A stretch of DNA of 64,000 bases from an uncultured Oscillospiraceae bacterium (lineage in GTDB: Bacteria > Bacillota > Clostridia > Christensenellales > CAG-314), in contig CAZFTO010000001.1 in assembly GCA_964521735.1 (NCBI GenBank), forward strand, positions 72,442 to 136,441, read 5' to 3'. The position numbers and the translations under genes were made by a program. How positions within the stretch are numbered: the stretch's first letter is position 1; each line of letters opens with the position of its first letter. This document shows, piece after piece, positions 3,712 to 35,159 of this stretch. The notes beneath the pieces were generated by a model that did not search any database, was not told where the DNA came from, and saw only the letters and a program-made list of their open reading frames with translations.

Positions 3712-5508
3712 ATGTCATATACAAATAGAAACGAAATCCCCGAAAAGTATAAATGGAATTTGGGCGATATTTTTGCAACACCTGCCGAATGGGAAGCATC
3801 CTTTGCGGAATTTGCCGCCATCGTTGCCAATCCCGACCAACTTTTGTCTCAATTCAAGGGCAAATTGGGCAATCGTGACACGTTGTTGAAGTATCTCAAG
3901 CTTTCCGACGAATACGACGTTAAACTAAGCAGATTGTATTGCTACGCATTTATGAGCTACAACGAAGACAGTCAAGATGCCGAACGCCAAGCAAGATTTT
4001 CCAAGGTGTACGGTTTGCTTACCAACTACAGCGCACTGTTGTCTTTCGTATCCCCCGAACTATCCGCTTTGCCCGACGAAACTTTGCAAAAGTTCATTGA
4101 CGATCCGGAATTTTCCGACTACGACGTTTCGCTCAAAAGCGTTCTAAGAGGCAAAGCTCACGTGCTTTCCGCCGCCGAAGAATTGCTTATGGCCAACGTT
4201 GGTGCTTTCAGCGGCCAATTCCAAGAAGTTTTCAACCGTTTGGATAGCGGCGACATCAAATTTGAACAAATCGAAGTGGAAGGCGAAAAGGTGCAACTAG
4301 GTCACGGAACCTATTCCATGTTGTTGCAACACAAAGATCAAAACGTTCGCAAACTTGCATTCGAAACCTACTACAAATCTTATATCAACGTTATCAACAC
4401 GCTTGCCGGCCTGTACGAAGGCAGTGTTAAGGCAGACGTTTTCCGTGCTCGCGCAAGAAAATTCCCCTCGGCAATGGATTCGGCATTGTTCAGCGAACAA
4501 GTGGATAAGGCCGTATACGACAATCTTATCAAGTGCATGCACGAAAGCTTCCAGCCGTTGCATCACTATGTTGCTTTGCGCAAAAAATTGATGGGCGTTG
4601 AAACCCTCAACATGTACGACCTTTACGTTTCCATTTTCGATAACGCCGATATTTCTTGCGAATACGAAGAAGCGTGCGAACTTGTCAAAAAGGGACTTGC
4701 CCCCTTGGGCGAAGACTATTTGGCCGTGGTGCAACAAGCTTTCGACAACCGTTGGATCGACGTTCACGAAACACCCACCAAACGCAGTGGCGCATATTCC
4801 ATGGGCGTTTCTGGCGTTCACCCCTACATGTTGTTGAACTACCAAAAAACAACCCACGACATTTTCACCATTGCGCACGAAATGGGCCACTCTATGCACA
4901 CATATTATAGCGAAAAGAATCAACCCGTGGCAAAAGCCGACTACAAAATTTTTGTTGCGGAAGTTGCATCCACCTGCAATGAAGTGTTGTTGCTAAAATA
5001 TTTGCTCAAAACGCAAACGGACGTTAAACTTAAAAAGTATTTGTTGCAATACTATTTGGATATGTTGCGCACAACAATGTATCGTCAAGCTATGTTTGCA
5101 GAATTTGAACAAATTTCTCACGACATGGTGGAAAAAGGCCAACCGCTAACCGCCGATGCAATGTGCCAAAAGTATTTGGAACTAAACAAAATGTACTATG
5201 GCGAAGCCGTTAACCACAACGACGAAATCAAGTACGAATGGGCTCGTATTCCTCACTTCTATCGCGCATTCTACGTGTACAAGTATTCCACCGGCATCAT
5301 CTCCGCTGTGTGCATTGCCGAAAAGATTTTGAGCGAAGGCGAATCGGCCGTTAAAAACTACAAAAAGTTTTTATCTTTGGGCGGCAGCATGGATCCCGTT
5401 TCCGAACTTAAAGTTGCCGGTGTTGATCTCACCAGCGAAGAACCCTTCAAAATCGTCACAAAATCCTTTGAAGATACCTTGCGCGAATTGGAAGAACTTT
5501 GCAAATAA
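3712..5508 (+). CDS. pepF: Oligoendopeptidase F (M3B family)
   Basis: 598 aa, with HEMGH zinc motif (TIAHEMGHSMH) and typical PepF N-terminus (IPEKYKWNLGDIF). Confidence 0.9.
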   Translation: MSYTNRNEIPEKYKWNLGDIFATPAEWEASFAEFAAIVANPDQLLSQFKGKLGNRDTLLKYLKLSDEYDVKLSRLYCYAFMSYNEDSQDAERQARFSKVYGLLTNYSALLSFVSPELSALPDETLQKFIDDPEFSDYDVSLKSVLRGKAHVLSAAEELLMANVGAFSGQFQEVFNRLDSGDIKFEQIEVEGEKVQLGHGTYSMLLQHKDQNVRKLAFETYYKSYINVINTLAGLYEGSVKADVFRARARKFPSAMDSALFSEQVDKAVYDNLIKCMHESFQPLHHYVALRKKLMGVETLNMYDLYVSIFDNADISCEYEEACELVKKGLAPLGEDYLAVVQQAFDNRWIDVHETPTKRSGAYSMGVSGVHPYMLLNYQKTTHDIFTIAHEMGHSMHTYYSEKNQPVAKADYKIFVAEVASTCNEVLLLKYLLKTQTDVKLKKYLLQYYLDMLRTTMYRQAMFAEFEQISHDMVEKGQPLTADAMCQKYLELNKMYYGEAVNHNDEIKYEWARIPHFYRAFYVYKYSTGIISAVCIAEKILSEGESAVKNYKKFLSLGGSMDPVSELKVAGVDLTSEEPFKIVTKSFEDTLRELEELCK

Positions 5509-5621: not shown

Positions 5622-6557
5622 TTAAGCTTTGTTTTCGCTGCCCAAAACGTTGATGATTTTGTGTTTTACCATTTCTTTCATCATGGTGCGAGCGTCGCCC
5701 AAATATTGTCTGGGGTCGAAGTGAGCGGGGAAATCAACAAAGTGCTTGCGGATAGCGGCGGTGAAAGCCACTCTCAAGTCGCTATCGATGTTAATTTTGC
5801 AAACGGCCATTTTTGCTGCCTTTTGCAATTCGCTTTCGGGAATGCCAATTGCGTTGGGCATACTGCCGCCGTATTGGTTAACAATGGCAACCTTGTCTTG
5901 AGGAACGCTGCTTGCGCCGTGCAAAACAATGGGGAATCCGGGCAATCTGTGGCCAATTTCTTCCAAAATGTCCAAACGAAGTTTGGGATCTTGACCGGGT
6001 TTGAACTTGAATGCGCCGTGGCTTGTGCCGATGGCAATTGCCAAACTGTCAATGCCCGTTCTTTGCGTGAATTCTTGCACTTCGTCGGGGCTGGTGAACA
6101 AAGCATCGTCGGCTTCCACGTGAACGTCGTCTTCAATGCCGGCAAGTTTGCCAAGTTCTGCTTCAACAACAACGCCGTGAGCGTGTGCATATTCCACAAC
6201 CTGTTTGGTGATGGCAATGTTTTCTTCCCAAGGTTTGGAAGAAGCGTCAATCATAACGGACGTAAATCCACTGTCGATAGCCGATTTGCAAACTTCAAAA
6301 TCTGCACCGTGATCCAAGTGCATAGCAATGGGAATATCTGTTGTTGCAACTGCGGCATCTACCAAGTGTTTCAAATAAACGGGGTTGGCGTATTTTCTTG
6401 CGCCGGCGGAAACTTGCAAAATAACGGGAGAACGACATTCGTTTGCTGCGTCAACAATTGCTTGAATCATTTCCATGTTGTTCACGTTGAAGGCGCCAAT
6501 GGCGTATCCTTCACGGTATGCTTTTTCAAACATTTCTTTTGTTGTAACGAGTGGCAT
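5622..6557 (-). CDS. fba: Class II fructose-1,6-bisphosphate aldolase
   Basis: MPLVTTKEMFEKAYREGYAIGAFNVNNMEMIQAI..., plus AMHLDHG and the VLHGASSVP blocks. Confidence 0.95.
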   Translation of the reverse strand: MPLVTTKEMFEKAYREGYAIGAFNVNNMEMIQAIVDAANECRSPVILQVSAGARKYANPVYLKHLVDAAVATTDIPIAMHLDHGADFEVCKSAIDSGFTSVMIDASSKPWEENIAITKQVVEYAHAHGVVVEAELGKLAGIEDDVHVEADDALFTSPDEVQEFTQRTGIDSLAIAIGTSHGAFKFKPGQDPKLRLDILEEIGHRLPGFPIVLHGASSVPQDKVAIVNQYGGSMPNAIGIPESELQKAAKMAVCKINIDSDLRVAFTAAIRKHFVDFPAHFDPRQYLGDARTMMKEMVKHKIINVLGSENKA

Positions 6558-6631
6558 GGTTTTTTACCTCCAAGATAAAAAAATTTTATATCGCGCTAAA
6601 CTTAAATTTATATTTTTTGGCATTTCTTTTG

Positions 6632-6660
6632 TTGTCAAACGTTTGGCGCTGTGTTATAAT
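6632..6660 (+). promoter_or_regulatory. Sigma-A-type promoter for gap
   Basis: TTGTCA - 17 nt - (TGt)TATAAT, with extended -10. Confidence 0.6.
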
Positions 6661-6745
6661 AACAAAGGTATTTTAGCACAATACTTAATTTTAGTAAAGA
6701 AGTATTTGTGCCGCCAATAAGAAATTTTTTTGGAGGTAACTCACA

Positions 6746-7813
6746 ATGGCAAACAAAACAGTAAGAGTTGCAATCAACGGTTTCGGACGTATCGGTCGTC
6801 TTGCATTCCGTCAAATGTTCGGCGCAAAAGGTTACAAAATTGTTGCAATCAACGATTTGACAAGCCCCAAAATGCTTGCTCACCTTTTGAAGTACGACAC
6901 AGCTCAAGGCAACTACGTAGCATTGGGACACACTGTTTCCCACAAAGATCCCGTTTTGGCAGAAGATGGCAAAACCGTCGTTACACCCGGCGCAATCATT
7001 GTTGACGGAACGGAAATCACCATTTATGCAGAACCCAAAGCAGCAAACCTTCCTTGGAAAAAACTTAGAGTAGACGTTGTTTTGGAATGCACCGGCTTCT
7101 ATTGCTCTAAAGAAAAGAGCCAAGCTCACATCGCAGCAGGCGCAAAGAAAGTTGTTATTTCTGCTCCCGCAGGAAAAGACCTTCCCACAGTTGTGTTTGG
7201 TGTTAACGAAGACGTTCTCACTGCCGAAGACAACATCATTTCCGCAGCTAGCTGCACAACCAACTGCCTTGCTCCCATGGCAAAAGCTTTGAACGACTAT
7301 GCTCCTATCCAAAGCGGCATCATGACAACCGTTCACGCCTACACCGGCGACCAAATGGTTTTGGACGGACCTCACCGCAAGGGCGACCTTCGTCGTGCAC
7401 GCGCAGCAGCACAAAACATCGTTCCTAACACCACCGGCGCAGCAAAAGCTATCGGTTTGGTTATCCCCGCTTTGAACGGCAAACTTATCGGTTCCGCACA
7501 ACGCGTTCCCGTTTGCACTGGCAGCACCACAATTTTGGTAGCAGTTGTTAAAGGTCACGACGTAACCGTTGAAGGCATCAACGCTTATATGAAGTCCGTT
7601 GCTAACGAATCCTTCGGCTACAACGAAGATATGATCGTTTCTTCCGATATCATCGGTATGCGTTTCGGCAGCTTGTTCGATGCAACTCAAACCATGGTTG
7701 CTAAAATCGACGACGACACCTATCAAGTACAAGTTGTTTCTTGGTACGACAACGAAAACAGCTACACTTCTCAAATGGTTCGCACAATCAAATATTTCGC
7801 AGAACTCAACTAG
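6746..7813 (+). CDS. gap: Glyceraldehyde-3-phosphate dehydrogenase
   Basis: [17 protein letters not shown]ossmann N-terminus and active-site [10 protein letters not shown]. Confidence 0.95.
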
Positions 7814-11188: not shown

Positions 11189-12226
11189 ATGTCAAACTAC
11201 GTTTATTCAAGTTCTCCGCAAATTCGAAGCAGCGTCACAACAAAACGGATAATGATTGACGTTTGCATTGCATTATTGCCTGCTTGCATAGCCGGTTGCA
11301 TATTGCTCGGATGGATGTCTCTTTTGATTTTGGCCATTGCGGCACTTTCGGCTGTTGCGGCGGAGTTTGTTTTTCTGCTTTGTTGCAAAAAAACTTTCCA
11401 ACAAATTTTGGATCAATTCGATTTTTCTTCACTGGTAACAGGCTTGCTAGTTGGCATGAATATGTATGCCAATTCAAAGTGGTATGCGCCGCTTTTAGCA
11501 AGCGTATTTGCAGTTGTTGTTGTAAAAATGCTGTTTGGCGGCACGGGCAAAAACGTTGTTAATCCGGCCATTGCCGGCAGAATTTTCGCATTCATTTCCT
11601 TTGGAGCGGCTTTCGGCGGCACAATGCACTTCGTCCGCCCAGATGGAACGGCTGCAAAAGTGCTTTCTTCCGTCACCGGCGGTTATATTCAGGGTGCAAC
11701 CCCATTGCAAGCCATTTTTGGTGCGGAAATCACCAATAACGCTCTCACCAATTTGGATTTGTTCCTTGGCACCGGCGTTCCCGGTTGTATAGGTGAAACT
11801 TGCAAACTTGCGCTTATTATTGGCGGATTGTATTTGGTGGTGCGTGGTGTTCTAAACTTCCGTTGGCCGCTAGTATACGTGTTTGTGGCAGGAGTAACGG
11901 CAGTTGTGCTAAATTGGGCAGACGGCCTAACGTTTAGTCAAGCCATTGCAACTTTCCTTCCCAACGTGCTTTCCGGCGGTTTGATTTTGGGCGCCATTTT
12001 CATGGCAACCGACTACGTGACAACACCCACAACAAAATTGGGCAACTACGTGTACTTTGCAATTTTGGGCGTGCTTACGGCCGTGCTACGCAAGGCTGTC
12101 AAAGGTGAAGCCGTTTCCTTTGCAATTTTGCTAATGAATTTGATCGTTCCCATTTTCGACAGGTTGTTCGTGCGTCGCCCGTTCGGCTACGTAAAGCCTC
12201 AAAAAACGCAAAAGGAGGCTAAGTAG
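11189..12226 (+). CDS. rnfD: Rnf complex subunit D (NqrB/RnfD family)
   Basis: Polytopic membrane protein with PLLASVFAVVVVKMLFGGTGKNVVNPAIAGR and the FMATDYVTTP blocks. Confidence 0.9.
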   Translation: MSNYVYSSSPQIRSSVTTKRIMIDVCIALLPACIAGCILLGWMSLLILAIAALSAVAAEFVFLLCCKKTFQQILDQFDFSSLVTGLLVGMNMYANSKWYAPLLASVFAVVVVKMLFGGTGKNVVNPAIAGRIFAFISFGAAFGGTMHFVRPDGTAAKVLSSVTGGYIQGATPLQAIFGAEITNNALTNLDLFLGTGVPGCIGETCKLALIIGGLYLVVRGVLNFRWPLVYVFVAGVTAVVLNWADGLTFSQAIATFLPNVLSGGLILGAIFMATDYVTTPTTKLGNYVYFAILGVLTAVLRKAVKGEAVSFAILLMNLIVPIFDRLFVRRPFGYVKPQKTQKEAK

Positions 12227-12227
12227 T

Positions 12228-13490
12228 ATGAGCAAAAACACTCTCACTGCCGAACAAAAAGCGGCAAAAAAAGCAACTACAATTCAATCGGTAAAAACCG
12301 TTGCCGTGTTGGTTGTTATTTGTTTGGTGTGTTGCTTGTTGTTGTCCGTTTGCAACGACTTGTTCTACATTTCCGATGAAGATCGCTTCCAGCGTTCCAT
12401 GGCAAAAATCTATCCCAACTTCGTCAACGACGATTCCTTCGATACAACACTCGACGATCAATATAAGGTCGCTGCCGAATATGGCGAAATAAAAAGTGTT
12501 GCTCGTTCCACCGACGGCGCGTATATAGTGGAAGCGCTGGGCAACGGCGGATACGGCGGTGGCACCGTTACGTTGTACGTTATTGTTGGCGGCGATGCTA
12601 AAATAATTGGCTGGGCCGTTAAGGAAAACGTTTCTCAAAGCTATATCAATCGCATTCCGTCCGATGCTGGCAGCACTTGGTACGTGGGTAAAGACGTTTC
12701 GTCTTCGTTGCAACTGGATATGACCGGCGCAACGGTGGTGCTAACTTCAACGGCAATAAACCACGCCGTAAACATGGCGGCATACTACTGCCGCAACGCT
12801 CTAAATTTGGGACAAAATCCCGAAGCGGATGCGCTTGCCGCAGTGCAACAACTGCTAGGTGAGGAATATTCTTCGCAAGTTTGGCAAGGCAAGGCGCAGG
12901 TGCTGAACGCAGCTGTGGGCACTCAAACAGTGGCGCAGTTGCTTTCCACAAGCGATAGCGAGGCAACCTATTTGTTTGTTTCGGAAGAAGGATTGCAAGC
13001 GTTTGTTTATGGCACGCAAAACCTCAAAATTGTGGTGCTAAACGATGGTGAAGTTGTTGCCACCAACTTGCAACAAGAGGACGAAATTTTGTCAAAACTA
13101 TCTCAAACAAGATTGTTGTCTTTCCAATTTGGTTCCTACACGGCTTTTGCGGTAGCAACAGAAGAGCAGCGGACGGACAAATGCATATACACCGTTGCGG
13201 GACTTAACGTCGACACCGTTCCCGGCAGCTACGTGTTGGAAGTCACCATCGAAAACGTTTCCGGCGCAGGCAAGGTTACAAGCATTGTTGCAAAAACCAG
13301 CGGTTACGTAAGCGGTTCTCCGTCGCAAACAGATGCAGACGTGCTTATAACCTCTTTGGTGGGCGCAACAAGTGAAACGGTGGATAGTATTTATTCTAGC
13401 AACAAGGTTGCCGGTGCAACACAATCGGCAAACCTAATAACTGCGGCAGTAAAAGCAGCGTTGCAACTTTTCGACGCTACGTTGGTCTAG
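12228..13490 (+). CDS. rnfG: Rnf complex subunit G, unusually long (420 aa), with a second FMN_bind-like module
   Basis: N-terminal TM, GYGGGTVTLYVIVGGDAKIIGW, and the flavinylation-type motif TGAT (MTGATVVLTSTAINHAV). The C-terminal half repeats the pattern (KVAGATQSANLITAAVKAAL). Positioned between rnfD and rnfE. Confidence 0.8.
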   Translation: MSKNTLTAEQKAAKKATTIQSVKTVAVLVVICLVCCLLLSVCNDLFYISDEDRFQRSMAKIYPNFVNDDSFDTTLDDQYKVAAEYGEIKSVARSTDGAYIVEALGNGGYGGGTVTLYVIVGGDAKIIGWAVKENVSQSYINRIPSDAGSTWYVGKDVSSSLQLDMTGATVVLTSTAINHAVNMAAYYCRNALNLGQNPEADALAAVQQLLGEEYSSQVWQGKAQVLNAAVGTQTVAQLLSTSDSEATYLFVSEEGLQAFVYGTQNLKIVVLNDGEVVATNLQQEDEILSKLSQTRLLSFQFGSYTAFAVATEEQRTDKCIYTVAGLNVDTVPGSYVLEVTIENVSGAGKVTSIVAKTSGYVSGSPSQTDADVLITSLVGATSETVDSIYSSNKVAGATQSANLITAAVKAALQLFDATLV

Positions 13491-16466: not shown

Positions 16467-18731
16467 ATGAAGCGTCTATTTTTGATAGCAACGTTGTTTG
16501 CACTATTGTGCGCAAGTTTGGTCGTTGCTCCGGCATTTGCCGAAGAGCCAGTGCTAACAACAAACAAAACAACCTATAACATCGGCGAGCCCATCACCGT
16601 CACAGCATCCAGCGCAAACACAAGCGGCAAGGATTGGGTCGGCTTGGTTGTTGGGGACAACTCCGATTGGGGATCCCTGCGTTGGGCTTACCTAAGTGAA
16701 TTTTCCGGTTCATTTGATATTCGTCTTGCCCCGCATGCTGCAACCACCGGATATTTTGCCCCATATAAAGATATTCCCGCCGGCGAATACACAATCTATC
16801 TTATGCCTGACGATTTGTCTCTGGGCGGCGACAAGGCCAACGCTGCCAAGGCGCTTGCATCGGTTAAAATAACCGTTGTTGGCGAAACAACGGCCCCGGT
16901 TTCGGCAAAACTCACTTTGGATAACCCCCAAAGCGGCATGGCGGATGGCACACTCACCATCAATTTGCCCGCTGGGCACAATGCCGACGACATTTACGTT
17001 TGGTGGGCAAACGAACAGGGCAAGTTGCCTGGCTACACAAGGCTTGCTCGTTTCAAAGTTCCCTATTCGTACACAACCTGTTTTTCACAGGCAATGACGC
17101 CGCATACGCTTATTCCGCAAGGTGCAACAAAACTTTTGGTATATACGTTTAGTGATGCCTATGGCCTTAGCAAAAGTTGTGTGGAAGTGCCCATTGGCAC
17201 GGTTGGCAGCGTGCTTGGCGAAGAAACTCCCATTGCCGAATTTCAAGTTGTCAGCGACATACACATTTCCAGCGCCGAATACATAAGCCATTTCCAAAGC
17301 ATGTTGGACGATATTGCTCAAAACAGCCCCAACTCTTGCGGCATATTTGCCGTTGGTGACGTTGTGGATCTAGGCGGAATTCCTGCCTATTGGCAAAGTT
17401 TGTGGTCCACCTACGATGCGGCCGAAAACGTCCCGTTTTTGTATATCGGCATGGGCAACCACGAAAGTTTTGGTTTTGCCAACCCCACCTACGAACAGCG
17501 TTTGCAAACCTTTTTGCAAAACTTGCGTTTGCCTAGCGGAATGGAAAAACCCCAAACTGCCTACTACGACGTTTGGGTAAACGGATTCCATTTTGTATTT
17601 TTGTCCTCCACGCAAAACAGCACCTATGCGATTATTGGTGATGAACAGTACGATTGGCTAGAACAAGTGCTTTCCAACTCGCCGGACGATCGTCCAGTGT
17701 TCCTTTTCATGCACGAATCCATGATAAACACCATTGCCGGCAGCACGGCCGAAGAAGGGTGGTGGGGCTTGCAAGACGATATGCGCCTGCGCCAAATTTT
17801 GCAACAATATCCCAACGCTTTTCTTTTCAACGGACACTCCCACTGGATTTTAGATTCGGAAAACTGCATGTACGGCGGTGGCAGTGATGCGGCCATTTTC
17901 AACACTTCGTCTGTTGCCTACCTGTGGCACTCCTACGACATTGTCGGCGGCGAATATATGGCCGGAAGCGAAGGCTACTACGTGCAAGTTTTCAAAGATA
18001 AGGTGCTTGTTCGTGGCAGAAATTTCCTCACCGGCGAATGGGTTTCCTCTGCGCAATTTGTGGTGGATAATCGCTACACTTTTGTTGACGGCGTGGATTT
18101 TGTCGACTTGCAACGTCAAACGCAACAAGCGCAAACGCTGGTGGAGGACGACTATCTTCCAGAAAGTTGGCAACAGTTCGCCACTGCGCTAGAACAAGCG
18201 CAATCGGCACTTAATTCGGGCAACCAACAAACTGTCGACAATGCTTTGCAAAAGCTAATAACTGCGCAAAACGCCTTGCAAAAAAAGCCGCAACGCAACC
18301 AACTTATGCAACAGGTGCAACAGCTCAACGAGCAAGTTCAACAACTAACAAACAGTTTGCAAACGGCCACTGCCGATAACAATTCGCTAACGGCGCAAAT
18401 AAGTTCTCTAAATGCGCAGGTTGCACAGCTAACACAACAGCTAAAAACGGCCGACGACGCCAACGCTTCCTTGTCGGATCAAATAAAAACGCTGCAACAA
18501 AACGTTAGTCAGCTTACGCAATCTCTTTCCCAAAAGCAACAACAAAACGACCGGCTTTCGCAAGAAATTTCCTACTTGCAAACGGCCGTTAACAACATGT
18601 CACAACAGCAACAACTTTCGCAGGATAAAACGCACAAATTGCTGGTTGCAACGGTTGCAGTAAGTTGCGTTGCTGGTTGCCTGTTGGTGGCAGTGGGGCT
18701 GGCAATTTTGCTAAGTCGTCGCAAAAGATAG
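16467..18731 (+). CDS. Secreted calcineurin-like metallophosphoesterase with a FIVAR-like helix, a Gln-rich coiled coil and a C-terminal TM anchor
   Basis: Signal peptide: LFALLCASLVVAPAFA. MPP motifs: VSDIHIS, GDVVDLG, GNHE, FMHES, NGHSHW. Also LPESWQQFATALEQAQSAL, ~130 aa of heptad-like Q/L/N-rich sequence, and a final TM LLVATVAVSCVAGCLLVAVGLAILL + SRRKR. Confidence 0.8.
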   Translation: MKRLFLIATLFALLCASLVVAPAFAEEPVLTTNKTTYNIGEPITVTASSANTSGKDWVGLVVGDNSDWGSLRWAYLSEFSGSFDIRLAPHAATTGYFAPYKDIPAGEYTIYLMPDDLSLGGDKANAAKALASVKITVVGETTAPVSAKLTLDNPQSGMADGTLTINLPAGHNADDIYVWWANEQGKLPGYTRLARFKVPYSYTTCFSQAMTPHTLIPQGATKLLVYTFSDAYGLSKSCVEVPIGTVGSVLGEETPIAEFQVVSDIHISSAEYISHFQSMLDDIAQNSPNSCGIFAVGDVVDLGGIPAYWQSLWSTYDAAENVPFLYIGMGNHESFGFANPTYEQRLQTFLQNLRLPSGMEKPQTAYYDVWVNGFHFVFLSSTQNSTYAIIGDEQYDWLEQVLSNSPDDRPVFLFMHESMINTIAGSTAEEGWWGLQDDMRLRQILQQYPNAFLFNGHSHWILDSENCMYGGGSDAAIFNTSSVAYLWHSYDIVGGEYMAGSEGYYVQVFKDKVLVRGRNFLTGEWVSSAQFVVDNRYTFVDGVDFVDLQRQTQQAQTLVEDDYLPESWQQFATALEQAQSALNSGNQQTVDNALQKLITAQNALQKKPQRNQLMQQVQQLNEQVQQLTNSLQTATADNNSLTAQISSLNAQVAQLTQQLKTADDANASLSDQIKTLQQNVSQLTQSLSQKQQQNDRLSQEISYLQTAVNNMSQQQQLSQDKTHKLLVATVAVSCVAGCLLVAVGLAILLSRRKR

Positions 18732-18805
18732 TATAAAAAACAAATTCATTTACTGTTTTTGGTTTGCATTTTTCAAAACGGTTTGTCGTTTTTTTAACGA
18801 ACTGG

Positions 18806-18840
18806 CAGCCGCGGACATTTTGTCTGCGGCTGTTTTCTTT
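18806..18840 (+). terminator. Rho-independent terminator
   Basis: cagccgcgga-cattttg-tctgcggctg hairpin followed by ttttcttt. Confidence 0.7.
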
Positions 18841-19194: not shown

Positions 19195-19223
19195 TTGACT
19201 TATGATTATTGGGGCGGTATTAT
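19195..19223 (+). promoter_or_regulatory. Near-consensus sigma-A promoter heading the long leader of the SipW/TasA-like locus
   Basis: TTGACT - 17 nt - TATTAT. A direct repeat TTGTCC(CC)AAAAACC occurs at 19127-19141 and 19181-19193, the latter abutting the -35. A G8 tract at 19235-19242 lies just downstream of the expected start site. Confidence 0.6.
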
Positions 19224-19924: not shown

Positions 19925-20686
19925 ATGGATGAATTACTCAAAGTAGTAGTTGTTGTGTTCATGTTTTTCATGTGCATCATTTGTCTGTTCGCAGTGGTTG
20001 TTATCGTGCGAGATATCGTTCACGAAAGCGCCAAAAGTCGTCGTGGTCGCAAGGACGAAGAAGATTCGCCTGCAGCACCCGCACCTCATGTGGCTGCGCC
20101 CGTAGTTTTGCCGGCGGAAGCTCCGCAACCGGTTGTTGTTCAGCCTGCGGTTATCGAACCGCTCCCCGTTGAAGAACCCGTGATTGCGCCTGTTCCTGCT
20201 GTAGAGGTGGAAATTGCCGCCGCCGTTGCCGAAGAAGATCCCGATGCCGTTTCGTTCAGCCGTGGCTCGCTTACCATGGAAGAAAAGTATGGCACGCTGT
20301 CTACGGAATTCAAACGCTATTTCGACGACATTGTGAGGCATGCAACTTCCAAGTCGGGCGTGAAAGAACTTAAACGTGGCACTTCCTACGACTACAAAAT
20401 TGGTGCATATCGTGTTGTTCGTCTTATGATCAAACGTAGCGAAATCGTTTGCGAATTCACCTTTATCGATCGTGAATTCAACAGCTATGCAAACGAATCC
20501 AACGTTCGCATCAAGCAAGCTGCAACAACTGTTCGTGTTAGCGAAGCATCTGCCGTTGGCGTTGTCAAAGACGGTATCGACCTTGTTTGTCAGCAAATTG
20601 CCGAAGATAAGGAACGCAAGGAACAAATTGCTCGCGAAAAACGCAAAGAACGCCGCAGACTTGCCAAAGAACAAGAACAAAAGTAA
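19925..20686 (+). CDS. Membrane-anchored protein of unknown function; first gene of the locus
   Basis: aaggagg RBS. N-terminal TM: VVVVVFMFFMCIICLFAVVVIV. Then an RRGRK stretch, ~70 aa of P/V/A/E-rich linker, a ~130-aa globular part (SLTMEEKYGTLSTEFKRYFDDIVRHA...), and the tail EDKERKEQIAREKRKERRRLAKEQEQK. Confidence 0.7.
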   Translation: MDELLKVVVVVFMFFMCIICLFAVVVIVRDIVHESAKSRRGRKDEEDSPAAPAPHVAAPVVLPAEAPQPVVVQPAVIEPLPVEEPVIAPVPAVEVEIAAAVAEEDPDAVSFSRGSLTMEEKYGTLSTEFKRYFDDIVRHATSKSGVKELKRGTSYDYKIGAYRVVRLMIKRSEIVCEFTFIDREFNSYANESNVRIKQAATTVRVSEASAVGVVKDGIDLVCQQIAEDKERKEQIAREKRKERRRLAKEQEQK

Positions 20687-20716: not shown

Positions 20717-21484
20717 ATGACAAAACAACCCAACGTCGGCTCGGCCGCAAACGGCAAACAAGCAGTCAGCAAAATTTTGCACGTGCTGGGCATTGTGCTG
20801 TGCGTGTTGTTGTTGGCAGTGTTGCTGTTCAACTGCATTCTTATCGTCGACGGAATGATTCACCCAAATCAAGTGCCGTCCATTGGCAACTATTCCCCGC
20901 TAATCGTGCTCACAAAATCCATGCATCCGCAAATCAAAGCCGGCGACCTTATCGTTTGTCGCCACGTAAGCAGTGAGGATGCAAAAAACCTTGCGGTTGG
21001 CACGGTAATTTCCTTCTACGACCCCGACGAAAGCAGTTCCGAAGTTGTTACGCACCAAATAATAAAAGTGCTAACGGACGAGCAAGGCAACGTATTCTAT
21101 GTAACAAAGGGCATCAACAACAACATTCAAGATATGTTGCCAGTTCCCTCCCAAAACGTCATCGGTGTCTATTCCGGTGTTCGCTTTGCGTTTGTGGGCA
21201 GTGTGGTTATGTTTGCTCAATCACCCGTTGGCTTGGCGTTGTTCATTGCTGTTCCCGTGCTTATTTTCGTTGCGTTTGTCGTGTTCGACCGCAAAAAGGC
21301 GGCGAAAGTTCAAAACAATCAGGAACTCACGCAAAGTTTGCAAGAAGTCGAACGCCTTCGCGCCGAAGTGGAATCGTTGCGTTCACAGCAAACTTCCGCT
21401 ACCGATGTCGAAACTGTTCAAAACGAAAAGGATGCACAACCAGCCGAACAATCTCAAACGTCCTTTGGCGACAAGCAAAACTAG
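20717..21484 (+). CDS. sipW: SipW-type (S26B, archaeal/ER-type) signal peptidase I, copy 1, with a long C-terminal tail
   Basis: N-terminal TM, Ser box VLTKSMHPQIKAGDLIV, His box VVTHQIIKV, box E-like YVTKGINNNIQDMLPV, C-terminal TM LALFIAVPVLIFVAFVVF, then a ~65-aa Q/E-rich coiled-coil-like tail. Confidence 0.85.
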   Translation: MTKQPNVGSAANGKQAVSKILHVLGIVLCVLLLAVLLFNCILIVDGMIHPNQVPSIGNYSPLIVLTKSMHPQIKAGDLIVCRHVSSEDAKNLAVGTVISFYDPDESSSEVVTHQIIKVLTDEQGNVFYVTKGINNNIQDMLPVPSQNVIGVYSGVRFAFVGSVVMFAQSPVGLALFIAVPVLIFVAFVVFDRKKAAKVQNNQELTQSLQEVERLRAEVESLRSQQTSATDVETVQNEKDAQPAEQSQTSFGDKQN

Positions 21485-21613
21485 TTTTTGCAACTAGCAA
21501 AGCATATCCATCCGAATTTGTTCGAGGTATGAAATACAATTTGCGCCCCTTGGGGCGTTGGCGAAGGCCCTTCGCCTGCAAAAGGGGCAAATTATTTATA
21601 AGGAGAAAAAACA

Positions 21614-22336
21614 ATGAAAGAAAACAACAAGAGAGTTTATAAGCTCTCCGCAATTTTGTTGGTTCTTTGCCTTATCACCGCGTGCGTAATCGGCACCACC
21701 TTGGCAAAGTATACAACAGGCGGCAACGGCACAGACAGTGCACAAGTTGCTAAGTGGGGCGTAAAAGTGGAAATCCAAGGCGATGACACTTTGTTCTCCA
21801 ACGAATACGAAAACGATGCTGATCCCGCTGTGAAAACAGTTATTTCTTCCAATACAAACATCGACGTTGTCGCTCCCGGAGCAGCTAGCACAAGCGCATT
21901 GAAGTTCGCTATCAGCGGCACCCCCGAAGTTTCCGCCAGAATCGAGTTCAACTTTACTGCAACTAAAGACGTGTTCCTTAAAGCAGCAACACACACCGAT
22001 CCTATCGAAGGAAAAACTGTAACAGTTGCAGCTGATTATCACCCCATTGTGTTCACGCTCAAACAAACCAAGAATGCAACCGGCGCAATCGATACCACAC
22101 TTGCAACCGGCACTTTGGAAGAAATCAAAACTGCAATCAACGCATTGAACACAAATTGCAATCCTAACACCAACCTTCAAGCAGAATACGAACTTACTTG
22201 GGCTTGGGCGTTCGATGGAAACGACTCCTACGACACGTTGCTTGGTAACTTCATTGCCGATCCCGCTGCTGATGGTGACAACGTTAGCACGGCTTTGGAA
22301 TATTCTCTTTCCATCACCGTAACGCAAATCGACTAA
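21614..22336 (+). CDS. TasA/camelysin-like secreted protein with a SipW-cognate-type signal peptide (candidate major subunit)
   Basis: N-terminus: MKENNKRVYKLSAILLVLCLITACVIGTTLA|KYTTGG..AQVAKWGVKVE. Blocks VVAPGAASTSALKFAISG, YELTWAWAFDGNDSYDTLLG and C-terminal YSLSITVTQID parallel TasA blocks as I recall them (GGGTWA|AFND, NLKPGD, IKLQFSFEATQ). Confidence 0.75.
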   Translation: MKENNKRVYKLSAILLVLCLITACVIGTTLAKYTTGGNGTDSAQVAKWGVKVEIQGDDTLFSNEYENDADPAVKTVISSNTNIDVVAPGAASTSALKFAISGTPEVSARIEFNFTATKDVFLKAATHTDPIEGKTVTVAADYHPIVFTLKQTKNATGAIDTTLATGTLEEIKTAINALNTNCNPNTNLQAEYELTWAWAFDGNDSYDTLLGNFIADPAADGDNVSTALEYSLSITVTQID

Positions 22337-22393
22337 TTTCAGTCTTCGCTTAACTTGGTCAAGCAAAAAAAATCACAAAGGAGGTAGAGCAAG

Positions 22394-23272
22394 ATGTCAA
22401 ACGACCGCAAAAAGTCCGAACGCCGTCAGTGGGTTTGGATAATGCTCATGGTAGATATCGTGTTCGTTTTGTTGCTTATGACGCTGGGCATCATTGCTCT
22501 GCAAGTAGGCAACGGTTTGCCGGATAACACCGACGTGCTGTTTATTGTTGGCAAAAACTATTCCGTCGACGTCGACGACGAAAGCGGAAAAACGTGGAGT
22601 TCCAACAACAACATTCAAATTTTCCAAGCAAGCTACGTCAACGATCAAGGCGTTGCAACGGTAAAATCCAGCAACGGACAATCGGTGTTTGCGCCCGGCA
22701 CAACCACAACCTATTCTTTTGCAATGCATAACAATGGCAACGCGGCAGTTATCTACCAAACAAACGTAAGTTTTGTTCTTTCGATAAACAACTCCGTTGC
22801 CACAAGCGAAAGTTTTCAATCGTTACCAATACTAGCGCGTTTGTACTATTCCAACGCTAACGGAGAAACAATCTATCTCATCGGCGACGAAGCCGTCGGT
22901 GTTCCTCTTAGCCAAGCGCTTGCAAGCAACGTGCAACTGGGCACGTTGGGCGCCAGTTCCTACCAAAAATTCAATTTGGAACTAACTTGGCCCTTCGAAG
23001 GGAACGACGACGTCGACACGTTGCTGGGCGACCTTGCTGCCAACAGGGATAACGGCGGTGTGGCCATCACAATGAAAGTCAGCACCTATGCCGAAGCACA
23101 TCCCAACACAACCGCAGAAGGCGGCATAAAAGTAGATCTCGATAGCACCGGTGGCACCGTCGAGCAAGGCGGCACAATACGTTGGTTGTGGCTGGTTTTG
23201 CTTATGCTAAACGCCGCAGTTATCATCTTCTACGTGGCATGGCTTCTCAACAAGCGTGCAAACAAATTTTAA
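22394..23272 (+). CDS. TasA-like paralog with an N-terminal signal-anchor and a C-terminal TM anchor
   Basis: SVFAPGTTTTYSFAMHNNGNAAVIYQ (cf. TasA KDFQFENNGSLAIKEV), LELTWPFEGNDDVDTLLGDL, VAITMKVSTYAEA. N-terminal TM: WIMLMVDIVFVLLLMTLGIIAL. C-terminal TM: IRWLWLVLLMLNAAVIIFYVAWLL + NKRANKF. It lacks the KY junction. Confidence 0.7.
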   Translation: MSNDRKKSERRQWVWIMLMVDIVFVLLLMTLGIIALQVGNGLPDNTDVLFIVGKNYSVDVDDESGKTWSSNNNIQIFQASYVNDQGVATVKSSNGQSVFAPGTTTTYSFAMHNNGNAAVIYQTNVSFVLSINNSVATSESFQSLPILARLYYSNANGETIYLIGDEAVGVPLSQALASNVQLGTLGASSYQKFNLELTWPFEGNDDVDTLLGDLAANRDNGGVAITMKVSTYAEAHPNTTAEGGIKVDLDSTGGTVEQGGTIRWLWLVLLMLNAAVIIFYVAWLLNKRANKF

Positions 23273-23311
23273 CGTTTGCGTACAAGCGCAAAACTATCAA
23301 GGAGAAATATT

Positions 23312-24064
23312 ATGGAGAAATCTCGTAAAAACAGAAAAGTTATGGCTATTGTAGCCATGGTGCTTATGGTTTGTCTAATTTTGGCAATGGGCGCCGTAAC
23401 CTTTGCAAAATATATCACCAGCGGAACAACCGATAACCAAACGGCAACCGCCGCAAAATGGGGCTACGTTGTCACTGTGGATGCAAGCAATTTGTTCGCA
23501 AGCGACTACAGTGTTGAAGCTGGCGGAGCACTTGCCACCAAAGCCACCGGTGACGGCGTTGCAATCAATGCTGCAAATATGGTTGTTGCTCCCGGCTCTA
23601 CCGGTTCTATGACAATCACCATTTCCGGCTCTGCCGAAACACTTGCCAAATTGACTATTTCAAATGAGGGAGAAATTAACGAAATTCACTATGGCGACTA
23701 CTACCCCGTTAAGTGGACTTTGAAGAAAGGCACGGCCACCCTTGGTGTGCCAAATGCTAAACTTGAAGATATCATAACATCGTTAGCAAGCGAAAACACC
23801 AGTTTCGATGCAGGCAGCGCGGATCAAACAATAACCTACACTCTCACTTGGGAATGGGCTTTGGATGGTACGGAAGCGTACGCCAACGTGCGCGATACCA
23901 TCATTGGCTATAAAGCAAGTGGCAAAAACTTCAGCGACATCGAAGACGTCTTCGTTGCTGGCACAAAAATCGGCGATTTTAGTAACGTGACGGCCTTTGA
24001 CGAAATCATTTATTCGCTAAGCTTCGAACTTAACGTTTCCGTTGAACAAGCTCAAACAAAATAA
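23312..24064 (+). CDS. TasA/camelysin-like secreted protein, paralog of 21614-22336
   Basis: ATG at 23312 follows the aaggagaaa RBS. N-terminus: MEKSRKNRKVMAIVAMVLMVCLILAMGAVTFA|KYITSG..ATAAKWGYVVTVD. Blocks: VVAPGSTGSMTITISG, YYPVKWTLKK, YTLTWEWALDG, C-terminal YSLSFELNVSVEQ. Confidence 0.75.
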   Translation: MEKSRKNRKVMAIVAMVLMVCLILAMGAVTFAKYITSGTTDNQTATAAKWGYVVTVDASNLFASDYSVEAGGALATKATGDGVAINAANMVVAPGSTGSMTITISGSAETLAKLTISNEGEINEIHYGDYYPVKWTLKKGTATLGVPNAKLEDIITSLASENTSFDAGSADQTITYTLTWEWALDGTEAYANVRDTIIGYKASGKNFSDIEDVFVAGTKIGDFSNVTAFDEIIYSLSFELNVSVEQAQTK

Positions 24065-24123
24065 TTTTTCAAAAAAACTTGTTCAAAACAAGCGGCGCAA
24101 GTCGCAAATCAACAAAAATTGGT

Positions 24124-24151
24124 CACATTCCCACAACTAAGTGGGAATGTG
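24124..24151 (+). terminator. Strong hairpin after the third TasA-like gene (possible terminator/attenuator; no clean T-run)
   Basis: cacattcccac-aactaa-gtgggaatgtg has a perfect 11-bp stem, followed by ccttgttgg. Confidence 0.4.
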
Positions 24152-24340
24152 CCTTGTTGGTTAAAGAGACAAACAGCAAATCGTTGCCCAAAAGTTTGCA
24201 AGCTACGTGGGCAAAATTGAAAAAATCGGTTGCTAGTTTTTCGCTAAGAACAAAATTGTCGCGAATAGTTTCTACAACAAAATTTTGTTTTTATCCAAAG
24301 ACTATCACAAGTGGCAACGGTGGTTGCCAAAGGGGAAAAC

Positions 24341-25063
24341 ATGTCCGAAAAGGCAAAAAAAGTTGGCAATATCATTGTCAAAATATTTTGGGGTGCGGTG
24401 TGGACGCTGTTGGGCTTGCTTGCACTGTTGGTGCTGTGGCTGGCATTTGATAAGTTCATCCTTAAAAATCCCGTTCCGTCCGTTTTTGGATATTCTTCAC
24501 TTAACATTGCCACCGGCAGCATGAATGGCAACAGCGCACTTGTTGCAAACGGCAAGCCCAAGCAGGTTGGCGAAGGCGATCTTATTGTCATCAAAAACAC
24601 CGGCGACTACGAAATAGGCGACGTTGTAACCTTTTTGCTAGACGGTGACAGAATCCCTACAACCCATCGCATTGTTAGCAAAACGGAAGAAGGGTTCATC
24701 ACCAAGGGCGATGCCAACAACTCCGCGGATTTGCGCCCCGTGCCGCAAGATAAAATTCTTGGCGAAGTTGTGGGGCACTATCCCACGCTTGGCGCATTTT
24801 CCATGTGGCTAAAGGCCGAAGGCGGCTGGATCTACATTGTGGCGGCATTGGCCGTTTTGGCATTGGGCGGTTTTTTGATTAAGGAAGCCGGCGCAAGCCC
24901 GGAAACTGCGCAAGAATCCACCGAACAGGCCGAATCCACCGATCAATCGGCAACAGAATCGGCCACCGAACAACCCCAAACCGAGCAACCGGTCGGCGAG
25001 CAAGAGGCAACTTCCCTTGTCAGGCAAAACGCCGAGGCGGAAGATTCCTTGCAAAACAAATAG
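24341..25063 (+). CDS. sipW: SipW-type (S26B) signal peptidase I, copy 2, with an acidic low-complexity C-terminal tail
   Basis: ATG at 24341 follows the aagggga RBS. N-terminal TM, Ser box NIATGSMNG with an insertion before GEGDLIVI, His box IPTTHRIVSK, box E FITKGDANNSADLRPVP, C-terminal TM WIYIVAALAVLALGGFLI, then a ~60-aa E/Q/T/S-rich tail. Confidence 0.85.
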   Translation: MSEKAKKVGNIIVKIFWGAVWTLLGLLALLVLWLAFDKFILKNPVPSVFGYSSLNIATGSMNGNSALVANGKPKQVGEGDLIVIKNTGDYEIGDVVTFLLDGDRIPTTHRIVSKTEEGFITKGDANNSADLRPVPQDKILGEVVGHYPTLGAFSMWLKAEGGWIYIVAALAVLALGGFLIKEAGASPETAQESTEQAESTDQSATESATEQPQTEQPVGEQEATSLVRQNAEAEDSLQNK

Positions 25064-34800: not shown

Positions 34801-35159
34801 CTTCAGTGCAGTTTGGCTACGCATTTAGTGGCCAAGAACAACCGCCGCAAAGCCTAAGCTACTTCGGCAAGCAAGATTCTTTCCGGGAAGTTTGTCAAGC
34901 AAGCACTTTCGGCACGCTTATTTGCGGCAACGGAAAGATGCAGTATTCGTTTAGCGGCAGTGCGTTTGCCTTGGTGGTGCGCCAGCAAAACGATTGCAAA
35001 CTAAAAGTGACGGTGGATGGCGTTTCACAAACGGTGGAAGTTGGCGGCAGCGATGCGCGACAGTTGGCGGTTGCGCTCAACTTGGGCGAAGGCGAACACA
35101 CTGTGGAAATTTGGGTGCAATCGGGCACAATAAACGTCGATTGCATACTGGTGCGATAG
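31896..35159 (+). CDS. Membrane/secreted M60-like (enhancin-type) zinc metallopeptidase with PA14-like and F5/8 type C (discoidin)-like carbohydrate-binding modules
   Basis: N-terminal TM: IVILCILVAVCLLASVLLFVL. M60-N-like block: YVTGLYAPAGEVVKVEISQ. Zinc motif GFWGVIHEFNHLYQ (HEFNH at 33051-33065). PA14-like: GKIYVEKSGNYAFCLRSGRGNNTLYLSVNN. Discoidin-like: NVFDGDPNTFYH...FALHVSLDGQNWQQAG. Confidence 0.7.
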   Translation: MSAKRKNRTIVILCILVAVCLLASVLLFVLYGGAQEQLQFSTTFNGKVNQWNQTLDTIPRKIPQTTSNEGLCGRYPTYGTAIPDITEAEKDALLAENAIIMASATSYDAMDKDGNLLLGGTPTGKKLYKHTSAVGMYYGNVSDDELAVVERITITANEQRNYVTGLYAPAGEVVKVEISQADLDAIGGSLTVVVGQVSQRNNINNIWKARNDFSRMPVVANKLQIMSTTAYVGNPLGGPIYVYPTSLGSTFTVTISGAVPYAHYVHGQTTQAQVEKMQNYSAPYYDFEVWDLGVRISGPSKYGNYNYQNLVQVGNLWEKIIRTSRQVPCSANASISVGFVCDCFVAAGAACAFQGGDSWVNMPCSWMGNALNYQSMVTDGFWGVIHEFNHLYQSYGMENTKTNEVTNNATSLLSYVSYTNISQNRSLDDGDLSGWNRYTDASRSLRETVQNAESGEPQRALNAYADIIHAFGVQTFAQATQLQKGFGVDNWYQALSLATNYNFTFYFENMLNCKLGDEVKALYDTADRTPFVPVATVFQTGRSILQNGNEVFVETMRPYLIARGTSQEINFNTQLVLPSGVTFRIESISEPQSGTLTQLSQNVYRYVPGAEEYSGTIKVKLALESDYFPAQSVTLTLNFRQYDKNQVEVLKYSYDGETKYQSVEEAVANNFDGYTNLQTYNSQSTFLNGLANGQIGIVQGKIYVEKSGNYAFCLRSGRGNNTLYLSVNNPDDLQQVLSLNTDHGGFQTEGEHVVKLNLSAGDYVYFREITLSRHYADAFTELGMANLDEKQSMSTVPAKTLCTNDMQMPVFDFSSQQIFPRVYQTSELLEVSPSSEHTLISTNMQRWDETTDIQNVFDGDPNTFYHNQRNCFVSAQNPFELVADMGKVATFNTLKIISRTSGQLNLPCSFALHVSLDGQNWQQAGYFENLPLVGITVQANFNETSFRYYKLVVTDTKSAYEGNKYVTISSVQFGYAFSGQEQPPQSLSYFGKQDSFREVCQASTFGTLICGNGKMQYSFSGSAFALVVRQQNDCKLKVTVDGVSQTVEVGGSDARQLAVALNLGEGEHTVEIWVQSGTINVDCILVR

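Follow-up and report, generated by a model that had tools for sequence, protein, structure and literature searches.

Two divergent SipW-like S26B signal peptidases in a conserved operon for secreted, putatively fibre-forming proteins of gut and rumen Clostridia

A 64-kb stretch of DNA from an uncultured Oscillospiraceae bacterium (referred to as the window) carries on its forward strand, between positions 19925 and 31570, an operon of eight tightly spaced genes, two of which encode divergent signal peptidases with 28% identity to each other. We refer to these as copy 1 (20717–21484, 255 aa) and copy 2 (24341–25063, 240 aa), the first and second peptidases of the operon. From the comparisons described below we propose, with moderate confidence, that they are two dedicated processing enzymes, both of the S26B type, of a conserved operon encoding fibre-like proteins that are secreted. 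As judged from its relatives, copy 1 is a member of a widespread and previously unremarked S26B subfamily that always occurs beside a second S26B peptidase.

Both proteins score above the curated cut-off (51.85) of TIGR02228, the archaeal and endoplasmic reticulum (ER)-type signal peptidase I model, copy 1 with 90.0 bits and copy 2 with 66.3, and they align with SEC11A/C and SEC11A respectively. The original prediction of two divergent paralogs, each heading its own block of secreted-protein genes, is upheld. The name SipW that came with it holds only in the wider sense of an S26B, SipW-like enzyme, as copy 1 (100.9 bits) and copy 2 (45.0 bits) both fall below the cut-off of 190 for NF046067, the equivalog model of Bacillus SipW. 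On these scores both are relatives but not orthologues of Bacillus SipW, and 'SipW-like S26B peptidase' is the accurate name. Hydropathy indicates a second transmembrane helix in each enzyme, at residues 171–190 of copy 1 (21227–21286) and 161–180 of copy 2 (24821–24880). The tails that follow are predicted to be cytoplasmic: the N-termini are basic, which sets an N-in orientation, and a hydrophobic segment of 20 residues that comes after a translocated domain would act as a stop-transfer sequence. For copy 2 we favour the ATG at 24341 as start codon, which is preceded by a ribosome-binding site (AAAGGGG) and matches public gene calls; the GTG at 24311, previously taken as the start, was rejected on these grounds.

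We aligned 240 metagenomic homologues, 120 for each copy, with human SEC11A and Bacillus subtilis SipW. The SEC11A residues used here agree with PDB alignments. The nucleophilic Ser of box B is Ser68 in copy 1 (TKSMHP; 20918–20920) and Ser60 in copy 2 (TGSMNG; 24518–24520), aligning with S56 of SEC11A; the general base of box D is His rather than Lys, namely His113 (21053–21055) and His109 (24665–24670 together with Arg110), aligning with H96; and the triad Asp of box E, aligning with D122, is Asp139 (21131–21133) and Asp130 (24728–24730). An alignment of this kind had been suggested as a check on the catalytic residues, and it finds both Ser and His in each copy; the loss of either, named in advance as a refutation, is not seen. 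Across the 240 homologues neither family varies at the equivalents of S56, H96 and D122. We also examined one genome per species, which returned 80 loci from 241 species genomes with confirmed copy 1 relatives, a lower bound, and yielded 77 first and 62 second peptidases. The H96 and D122 equivalents are again invariant (139/139), and the S56 equivalent is Ser in all but four, which show an alignment gap at this position; among the 77 first peptidases there is one such gap. An AlphaFold2 (AF2) model of copy 1 has a predicted local distance difference test score (pLDDT) of 78, rising to 85–95 across the catalytic domain. The best Foldseek matches of this model, the only one of the two peptidases compared in this way, are SEC11A/C (E ~1e-5, TM-score 0.62 on the target), and the third-best structural match is SipA of Streptococcus pyogenes. 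With the triad kept, both copies are apparently active S26B signal peptidases.

Copy 1 had been described as missing the first Asp of box E, and Ile133 (21113–21115) indeed occupies that position: residues 130–139 read TKGINNNIQD, where copy 2 has TKGDANNSAD. The absence is not a catalytic oddity, however, as the missing residue is the salt-bridge Asp equivalent to D116 of SEC11A and the D122 equivalent is kept. According to the SEC11A structure paper, D122 belongs to the catalytic triad, whereas D116 points into the protein core and forms a salt bridge with R97; the D116 mutant is less stable but has reasonable activity left, and the D122 mutant is inactive. R97 is the residue directly after the catalytic His. 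In copy 1 both partners of the bridge are replaced, with Gln114 at the R97 position and Ile133 at the D116 position, and copy 2 keeps the pair as Arg110 and Asp124 (24710–24712).

This coupling is seen throughout the relatives. The D116 position is Ile, Val or Thr in 115/120 copy 1 relatives and Asp in 120/120 copy 2 relatives, and the five metagenomic copy 1 relatives that have kept the Asp have all kept the Arg as well. Among the 77 first peptidases, 31 have the Arg–Asp pair and 46 lack the Asp, with the Arg surviving in only 2 of the latter; the 62 second peptidases divide into 49 with Arg and Asp, 12 with Lys or Glu and Thr, and one with Glu and Arg, an apparent charge swap. The covariation gives Fisher p values of ~1e-19 (first peptidases) and ~1e-13 (second peptidases) in tests that ignore phylogeny. 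A parsimony count on a rough neighbour-joining tree takes Asp as the ancestral state and requires a minimum of 6 changes in the copy 1 clade and of 8 in the whole tree. Read from these alignments, the loss of the Asp in copy 1 belongs to a remodelling of a buried ion pair that has recurred and that affects both partners together.

The residue directly before the nucleophile further distinguishes the two types of enzyme. The copy 1 subfamily is monophyletic in a neighbour-joining tree (78/78) and has the signature PLIVLT[D/E]SM in place of the (S/T)GSM of canonical enzymes, with Asp or Glu before the Ser in 118/120 metagenomic and 75/77 species-level relatives, and Gly in copy 2 relatives. The window copy 1 has Lys67 (20915–20917) at this position, where its 90%-identical relative has Glu. 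We rejected a sequencing error as the cause: two further assemblies of this species have an identical codon here, and the Lys is therefore real. We also rejected the idea that the acidic residue compensates for the lost Asp, as ~40% of the first peptidases, of which 75/77 have Asp or Glu here, still have the Arg–Asp pair, and the acidic residue is present in all five metagenomic copy 1 relatives that retain it.

The 80 loci come nearly all from gut and rumen Clostridia, mainly Oscillospiraceae, Christensenellaceae, Lachnospiraceae and Ruminococcus. A second S26B peptidase is encoded within 7 kb downstream of the first in all 59 loci that have at least 5 kb of downstream sequence; the partners within a locus are only ~25–30% identical. 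Peptidase 1 is usually followed by an A240-like gene, then a B292-like gene and then peptidase 2, often with a small A-like gene next (A240 and B292 are cargo genes of the window, described below). Where there is enough sequence the A240-like gene always lies 3' of peptidase 1, and the B292-like gene lies in between in most loci. We call this arrangement the simple module. An extended form, which adds the genes C250, D705 and E1378, is confined to a subclade and collinear in several genomes; the full eight-gene operon is collinear in loci L004–L007 and others. A literature search found no paper on paired SipW genes or on a two-peptidase design. L046 encodes three S26B peptidases (4934–5503 and 6288–6869 noted), one of the first type, one second-type enzyme with the tail motif described below and one with an acidic tail, and L037 is listed alongside it; the L046 arrangement suggests that the window copy 2 may be a third lineage rather than a modified second peptidase. 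L054 belongs to Adlercreutzia sp. ZJ176, an actinobacterium, and has a B292-like gene at 11591–12919, so that the module occurs outside the Clostridia. The label Acidiphilium on L010 probably reflects a binning error.

Copy 2 had also been credited with an insertion of ~17 aa after the catalytic Ser. By our alignment the net insertion is 11 aa (NSALVANGKPK; 24530–24562), there being 18 residues from the Ser to the Gly of the GDL motif against 7 in B. subtilis SipW, SEC11A and copy 1. Of the comparable second peptidases 6 of 15 have it, whereas all 47 from simpler loci lack it, and on this distribution it is lineage-specific. The insertion adjoins what we take to be the positions lining the S1 pocket in the Escherichia coli signal peptidase, and may for that reason tune the specificity of copy 2.

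Three cargo genes lie between the peptidases. A240 (21614–22336) encodes a secreted, beta-rich protein with the signal peptide ...GTTLA/KYTTGG (the slash marks the predicted cut, after A) and is the putative major fibre subunit. B292 (22394–23272), the putative membrane anchor subunit, has an N-terminal transmembrane segment, an A240-like ectodomain and a C-terminal transmembrane segment with a basic end, and C250 (23312–24064) is an A240 paralogue with the signal peptide ...AVTFA/KYITSG (cut after A). Past copy 2 are D705 (25156–27273), a secreted protein of 705 aa with the signal peptide ...GSISYA/KYTTG (cut after A), and E1378 (27434–31570), a secreted protein of 1378 aa with internal repeats, the signal peptide ...GVTFS/KYVTEEE (cut after S) and a putative role as adhesin or tip component. 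The A240-like family has 1424 homologues (E ≤ 0.001), all unnamed, and A240 has no Pfam domain. Its members share the N-terminus ...C-x-I-(S/G)-G-T-[F/L]-A-K-Y-[T/V]-T-...-D-[S/T]-A-[R/K]-V-A-K-W-G-[V/I]. In the AF2 model of A240 (pLDDT 79.6) a signal-peptide helix reaching residue 29 and a stretch at residues 28–46 with pLDDT below 50 precede a beta-rich body.

A Foldseek search of the PDB with the A240 model gives nothing significant (best E 0.0096), and the top, non-significant matches (E 0.0096–0.04) are CanA cannulae, the Natrinema Tafi pilin, FimF and Caf1, all of them donor-strand fibre subunits. Searches of A240 and its profile against TasA and Peptidase_M73 by Pfam, NCBIfam, PDB profile search and hhalign produced no match, hhalign aligning signal peptides only, and gave no sequence support for a TasA homology of the cargo. 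B292 is paralogous to A240 and C250, and its C-terminal transmembrane segment is seen in orthologues, except that in L054 and L050 it is replaced by an LPQTG/PKTGD sortase-type signal. These two signals, together with the transmembrane segment and basic end, fit the role of an anchor subunit. E1378 aligns with its orthologue in two offset BLAST registers (residues 553–1275 against 647–1359), which points to internal repeats of ~90–100 aa rich in G-I/G-V motifs, and repeats of this kind are typical of beta-helical adhesins. We infer from these features, by reasoning and not from demonstrated homology, that the operon encodes secreted fibre-like surface proteins.

Whether the two peptidases divide this cargo between them can be approached through the predicted cut sites. 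With the -3/-1 rule as a guide and TasA (GTWA, cut, AF) as an analogue, we place these after a small residue and before [K/R]-Y. In simple modules the cargo encoded between the peptidases has T-F-A/K-Y, with Thr at -3 in 44/47, Phe at -2 in 40/47 and Lys at +1 in 44/47, and the cargo encoded past the second peptidase has L-Y-A/R-Y, with Leu at -3 in 13/16 and Arg at +1 in 16/16 (the cut in both being after the A). The two classes are separated with Fisher p values of ~1e-10 and 3e-12, uncorrected for phylogeny. In the extended loci the -3 residue is Thr in 32/34 before the second peptidase and Ser in 11/17 after it. Position -3 is a classical specificity determinant of type I signal peptidases, and with such a determinant the segregated classes support separate substrate sets, although they do not prove them. 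In the window the predicted sites are TLA/KY (A240), TFA/KY (C250), SYA/KY (D705) and TFS/KY (E1378), and because these are so similar the split suggested in the original prediction, with small subunits for one enzyme and giant cargo for the other, is weaker here than in the simpler loci. That prediction of divided substrate ranges therefore survives in part: the cleavage-site classes do differ before and after the second peptidase, which, read from sequence, gives it partial support.

The tails of both peptidases are present as originally quoted, with lengths of 65 aa and 60 aa, but they differ in kind. That of copy 1 (residues 191–255; 21287–21481) is rich in Gln, Glu, Ala and Ser and contains a heptad stretch, LTQSLQEVERLRAEVESLRSQ (residues 204–224; 21326–21388), equalled in 0.3% of shuffles of the tail (p = 0.003). 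AF2 predicts one continuous helix at residues 170–235, with pLDDT 68–77 for residues 190–230 and below 50 for 231–255; the last ~25 aa are predicted to be disordered and are variable. Among first peptidases the tail has a median length of 47 aa, with a basic juxtamembrane stretch followed by a helix motif, L.[AEKS][EQ][LIVM]..[LM], present in 73/77 species (consensus D.dALlAELEALRA) and beginning 13 residues (interquartile range (IQR) 13–14) past the hydrophobic segment. In the window copy 1 the helix is one heptad longer. A motif kept so widely at a fixed distance from the membrane indicates that the copy 1 tail is under sequence constraint. The description of both tails as low-complexity accordingly applies to copy 2, and in copy 1 only to the last ~25–30 aa.

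The copy 2 tail (24881–25060) has low complexity (E12 A9 Q9 S7 T7; net charge -11). In simple modules the second peptidases have another helix motif, eLdeIReEIeRLKaE, in 40/47, placed 12 residues (IQR 11–13) from the membrane and resembling the AIREIERK stretch of B. subtilis SipW. This motif is absent from 14/15 second peptidases of extended operons, the window included, and their tails are acidic and of low complexity (median 45 aa, charge -10, 9% Lys plus Arg). Conservation of the tails in orthologous loci, raised in the original prediction, thus holds for the copy 1 motif, which distant loci keep as well; for copy 2 it extends only to an acidic composition over lengths of 11–80 aa, and on these alignments the copy 2 tail is constrained at most in composition.

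Taking these observations together, we propose that both enzymes are held in the membrane by an N-terminal anchor and a second helix, with the catalytic domain outside the cytoplasm and the tail inside it, and act on precursors that would be exported by Sec and tethered through their signal peptides. Cleavage at [T/S]-x-[A/S] before [K/R]-Y would free a conserved N-terminal extension (KYTT...DSARVAKWGV), which could then act as donor strand when the fibre polymerises, in the manner of TasA-type fibres. A240 and C250 would be processed by peptidase 1, and D705 and E1378 by peptidase 2, perhaps tuned by its 11-aa insertion. The peptidase 1 tail would prolong the second transmembrane helix as an amphipathic helix under the membrane, for oligomerisation or docking, and the acidic tail of peptidase 2 may be a disordered spacer or an electrostatic module. 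Several observations weigh against this proposal. The predicted cut is assumed, and the sole alignment in its support has a probability of 5.7%; the cargo has no significant sequence or fold similarity to TasA; all four cut sites in the window have Lys after the cut and are alike; and the motif classes could stem from descent within cargo families and not from peptidase specificity. Lys67 departs from copy 1's own family, the copy 2 tail has no conserved sequence, and the Fisher tests on the Arg–Asp pair take no account of phylogeny.

The similarity of the four window sites is also what would be expected if the peptidases were redundant, both cutting the same [T/S]x[A/S], KY sites, with copy 2 serving only to secure enzyme for the distal genes through its own promoter or a stabilised transcript. 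The conserved 277-nt spacer with a strong hairpin before copy 2 (see below) would suit such separate control of expression. We nevertheless regard redundancy as unlikely, as the pair is kept in 59/59 loci at such low identity between partners, each partner has its own signature before the nucleophile (Asp or Glu against Gly), the cargo motif classes segregate by position, and pure redundancy rarely lasts so long. Far harder to sustain is a role for copy 1 as a pseudo-peptidase, acting as a pilin chaperone or assembly factor in the manner of SipA (LepA) of S. pyogenes. The structural match to SipA, the missing Asp and the Lys that replaces the family Asp or Glu before the Ser could all be read in this way. 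However, Ser, His and triad Asp are invariant in copy 1 relatives apart from the single Ser gap in 77 loci, the absent Asp is dispensable for catalysis in SEC11A, and its loss together with the Arg partner is the pattern of a remodelled core and not of decay. Because the triad is invariant and the lost Asp is the structural, salt-bridge residue, copy 1 does not look like a pseudo-enzyme, and we reject this explanation as very improbable.

The tails could alternatively be tolerated, drifting cytoplasmic extensions past the second membrane helix with no specific function, and the variable length of the copy 2 tail, which has no conserved motif in comparable loci, as well as the variable, disordered end of copy 1, would be compatible with this. 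We consider it somewhat doubtful for the tails as a whole, given the copy 1 helix motif at its fixed membrane distance in 73/77 species and the separate motif at the same depth in simple-module second peptidases. In addition, the last 20 residues of B. subtilis SipW have a protease-independent role, according to Terra et al. 2012 as cited in PMC13566338. An elaboration of the two-enzyme proposal is that the peptidases form a heteromeric membrane assembly platform that orders cleavage and subunit addition to a donor-strand fibre ending at B292. The tail helices of simple modules, lying at equal depth (13 and 12 residues from the second transmembrane helix), might then pair as a parallel coiled coil; in the window lineage, where the second tail would have been replaced by the acidic disordered one, the basic helix of g0, the first gene of the operon, may be the new partner. 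We give this platform little credence at present.

The gene g0 (19925–20686) encodes a membrane-anchored protein of 253 aa with a predicted cytoplasmic body, placed there by the positive residues past its transmembrane helix. An alignment of 28 orthologues (45–94% identity across the full length) divides it into a transmembrane helix with two Cys, a variable linker of Pro, Ala and Glu, a conserved domain of ~115 aa and a conserved basic helix, LAREKRRE.R (20591–20683), which is electrostatically complementary to the acidic tail of copy 2. The original prediction named the Lys/Arg/Glu-rich tail of g0 as a conceivable partner of the peptidase tails. The transmembrane helix (19943–20008; FMLFLC.LCLFAV.VI.RDI) is almost invariant in the 28 species. 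A simple anchor would not usually be so conserved, and a specific contact within the membrane is suggested. Wherever it is detected g0 lies directly 5' of peptidase 1, but it is detected in only 22/58 loci with enough upstream sequence, including all 14 scorable extended loci. Its homologues comprise 335 cluster representatives at E ≤ 0.001. There is no Pfam or PDB sequence match, larger proteins with the g0 domain carry no informative domains, and matches to HMG-box and dynein were dismissed as weak (E ~0.05–0.1).

The operon DNA of the window is present in three metagenome assemblies at 99.9–100% identity, and the nearest species genome is a metagenome-assembled genome of an uncultured Oscillospiraceae with ~88% nucleotide identity, and 90% for peptidase 1. 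The two gene blocks are divided by a spacer of 277 nt (24065–24340) between C250 and peptidase 2. Compared with L007, an 88%-identical relative, this spacer is more conserved than the flanking genes. It contains an RNA hairpin (24121–24155, forward strand; dG -31.4 kcal/mol, z = -6.7) that in L007 has an identical stem and a different loop, and that scores as terminator-like but is without a clear T-run. A short inverted repeat, GGCAAC...GTTGCC, lies directly 5' of the peptidase 2 ribosome-binding site. The hairpin and inverted repeat could form a regulatory or RNA-processing element. The probable end of the operon is a terminator-like hairpin followed by a T-run at 31759–31783 on the forward strand, and a second terminator-like hairpin lies 5' of the operon at 18804–18834. 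The best promoter-like site 5' of the operon, TTGACT-17-TATTAT at 19195–19223, is ~700 nt before the start of g0, implying either a long leader or an unrecognised promoter closer to g0.

Beyond these boundaries, the gene just past the operon terminator (31896–35159) encodes a secreted protein of 1087 aa with M60-like_N, Peptidase_M60 (enhancin-like) and F5/8 type C domains. This M60-like peptidase with its sugar-binding domain may link the fibre locus to the binding or degradation of host glycoproteins. Upstream (16467–18731) is a gene for a secreted protein of 754 aa that has a region of metallophosphoesterase type and a FIVAR-like segment, as well as a long coiled coil rich in Gln and a transmembrane anchor at the C-terminus; the strong terminator at 18804–18834 sits 3' of this gene.

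SipW-type peptidases are familiar as dedicated enzymes that act singly to free TasA-like biofilm fibres, and the operon is a variation on this SipW/TasA-type theme. It shares with B. subtilis SipW an S26B enzyme of the Ser-His type that has a second, C-terminal transmembrane helix before its cytoplasmic tail and whose gene shares an operon with those of its secreted fibre and anchor substrates, putative in the window. In B. subtilis, however, there is one peptidase per operon, whereas the window has two and its cargo has no detectable sequence similarity to TasA. The tails in the window are moreover three times longer, and copy 1 lacks the Arg–Asp salt bridge and has Lys before the nucleophile. 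The sipW-bsaA-bsaB-bsaC operon of Clostridium perfringens, also of the Clostridia, likewise places a SipW-type peptidase first and several secreted matrix or fibre proteins after it, and export and polymerisation of BsaA need SipW. Unlike the window, it has a single peptidase, and no g0-like gene is reported. S. pyogenes SipA has the signal-peptidase fold, is encoded in a pilus locus and is essential for polymerisation, but it lacks the catalytic residues and works with sortases, whereas both window copies keep the triad.

Two-enzyme arrangements and dedicated peptidases are also found further afield. SEC11 of human and yeast shares the fold and the Ser-His-Asp triad, and humans also have two paralogous catalytic subunits; these differ from the window enzymes in forming a hetero-oligomer with SPC12, SPC22/23 and SPC25, in keeping R97–D116 and in having no long cytoplasmic tail. 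Sec11a and Sec11b of Haloferax volcanii are two S26B paralogues with differing cleavage efficiencies and presumed different roles, but are housekeeping enzymes, not encoded in a cargo operon and without tail motifs. In the haloarchaeal taf (Tat-fimbriae) cluster, donor-strand pilins are encoded alongside a dedicated S26-type peptidase, TafD, whose proposed partner is the accessory membrane protein TafG; TafB, which is membrane-anchored with a cytoplasmic domain, recalls the layout of g0; and it is the Tafi pilin that figures among the top, non-significant fold matches of A240. In contrast to the window, export there is dependent on Tat (twin-arginine translocation), TafD has four transmembrane helices and an extra Ig-like domain, and there is one peptidase per cluster, though the tafD-tafG pair is duplicated in some genomes.

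Divergent S26B peptidases kept as an obligate pair in gut and rumen Clostridia, in at least 241 species genomes, amount to a natural experiment on the specificity of ER-type signal peptidases, in which the substrate residues at -3 and +1 can be set against two features of the enzyme, namely the amino acid preceding the nucleophile and the loop inserted next to the S1 pocket. The covariation of Arg and Asp provides an independent, sequence-only confirmation of the structural role of D116 in SEC11A, and cautions against labelling such enzymes inactive. Should the assembly platform be real, it would be a bacterial counterpart of a multi-subunit signal peptidase complex, working as a machine for pilus polymerisation. 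The cargo itself forms an unannotated family of ~1400 proteins at E ≤ 0.001, and the product of the operon may be an adhesive fibre, hitherto undescribed, of gut bacteria that are abundant but uncultured.

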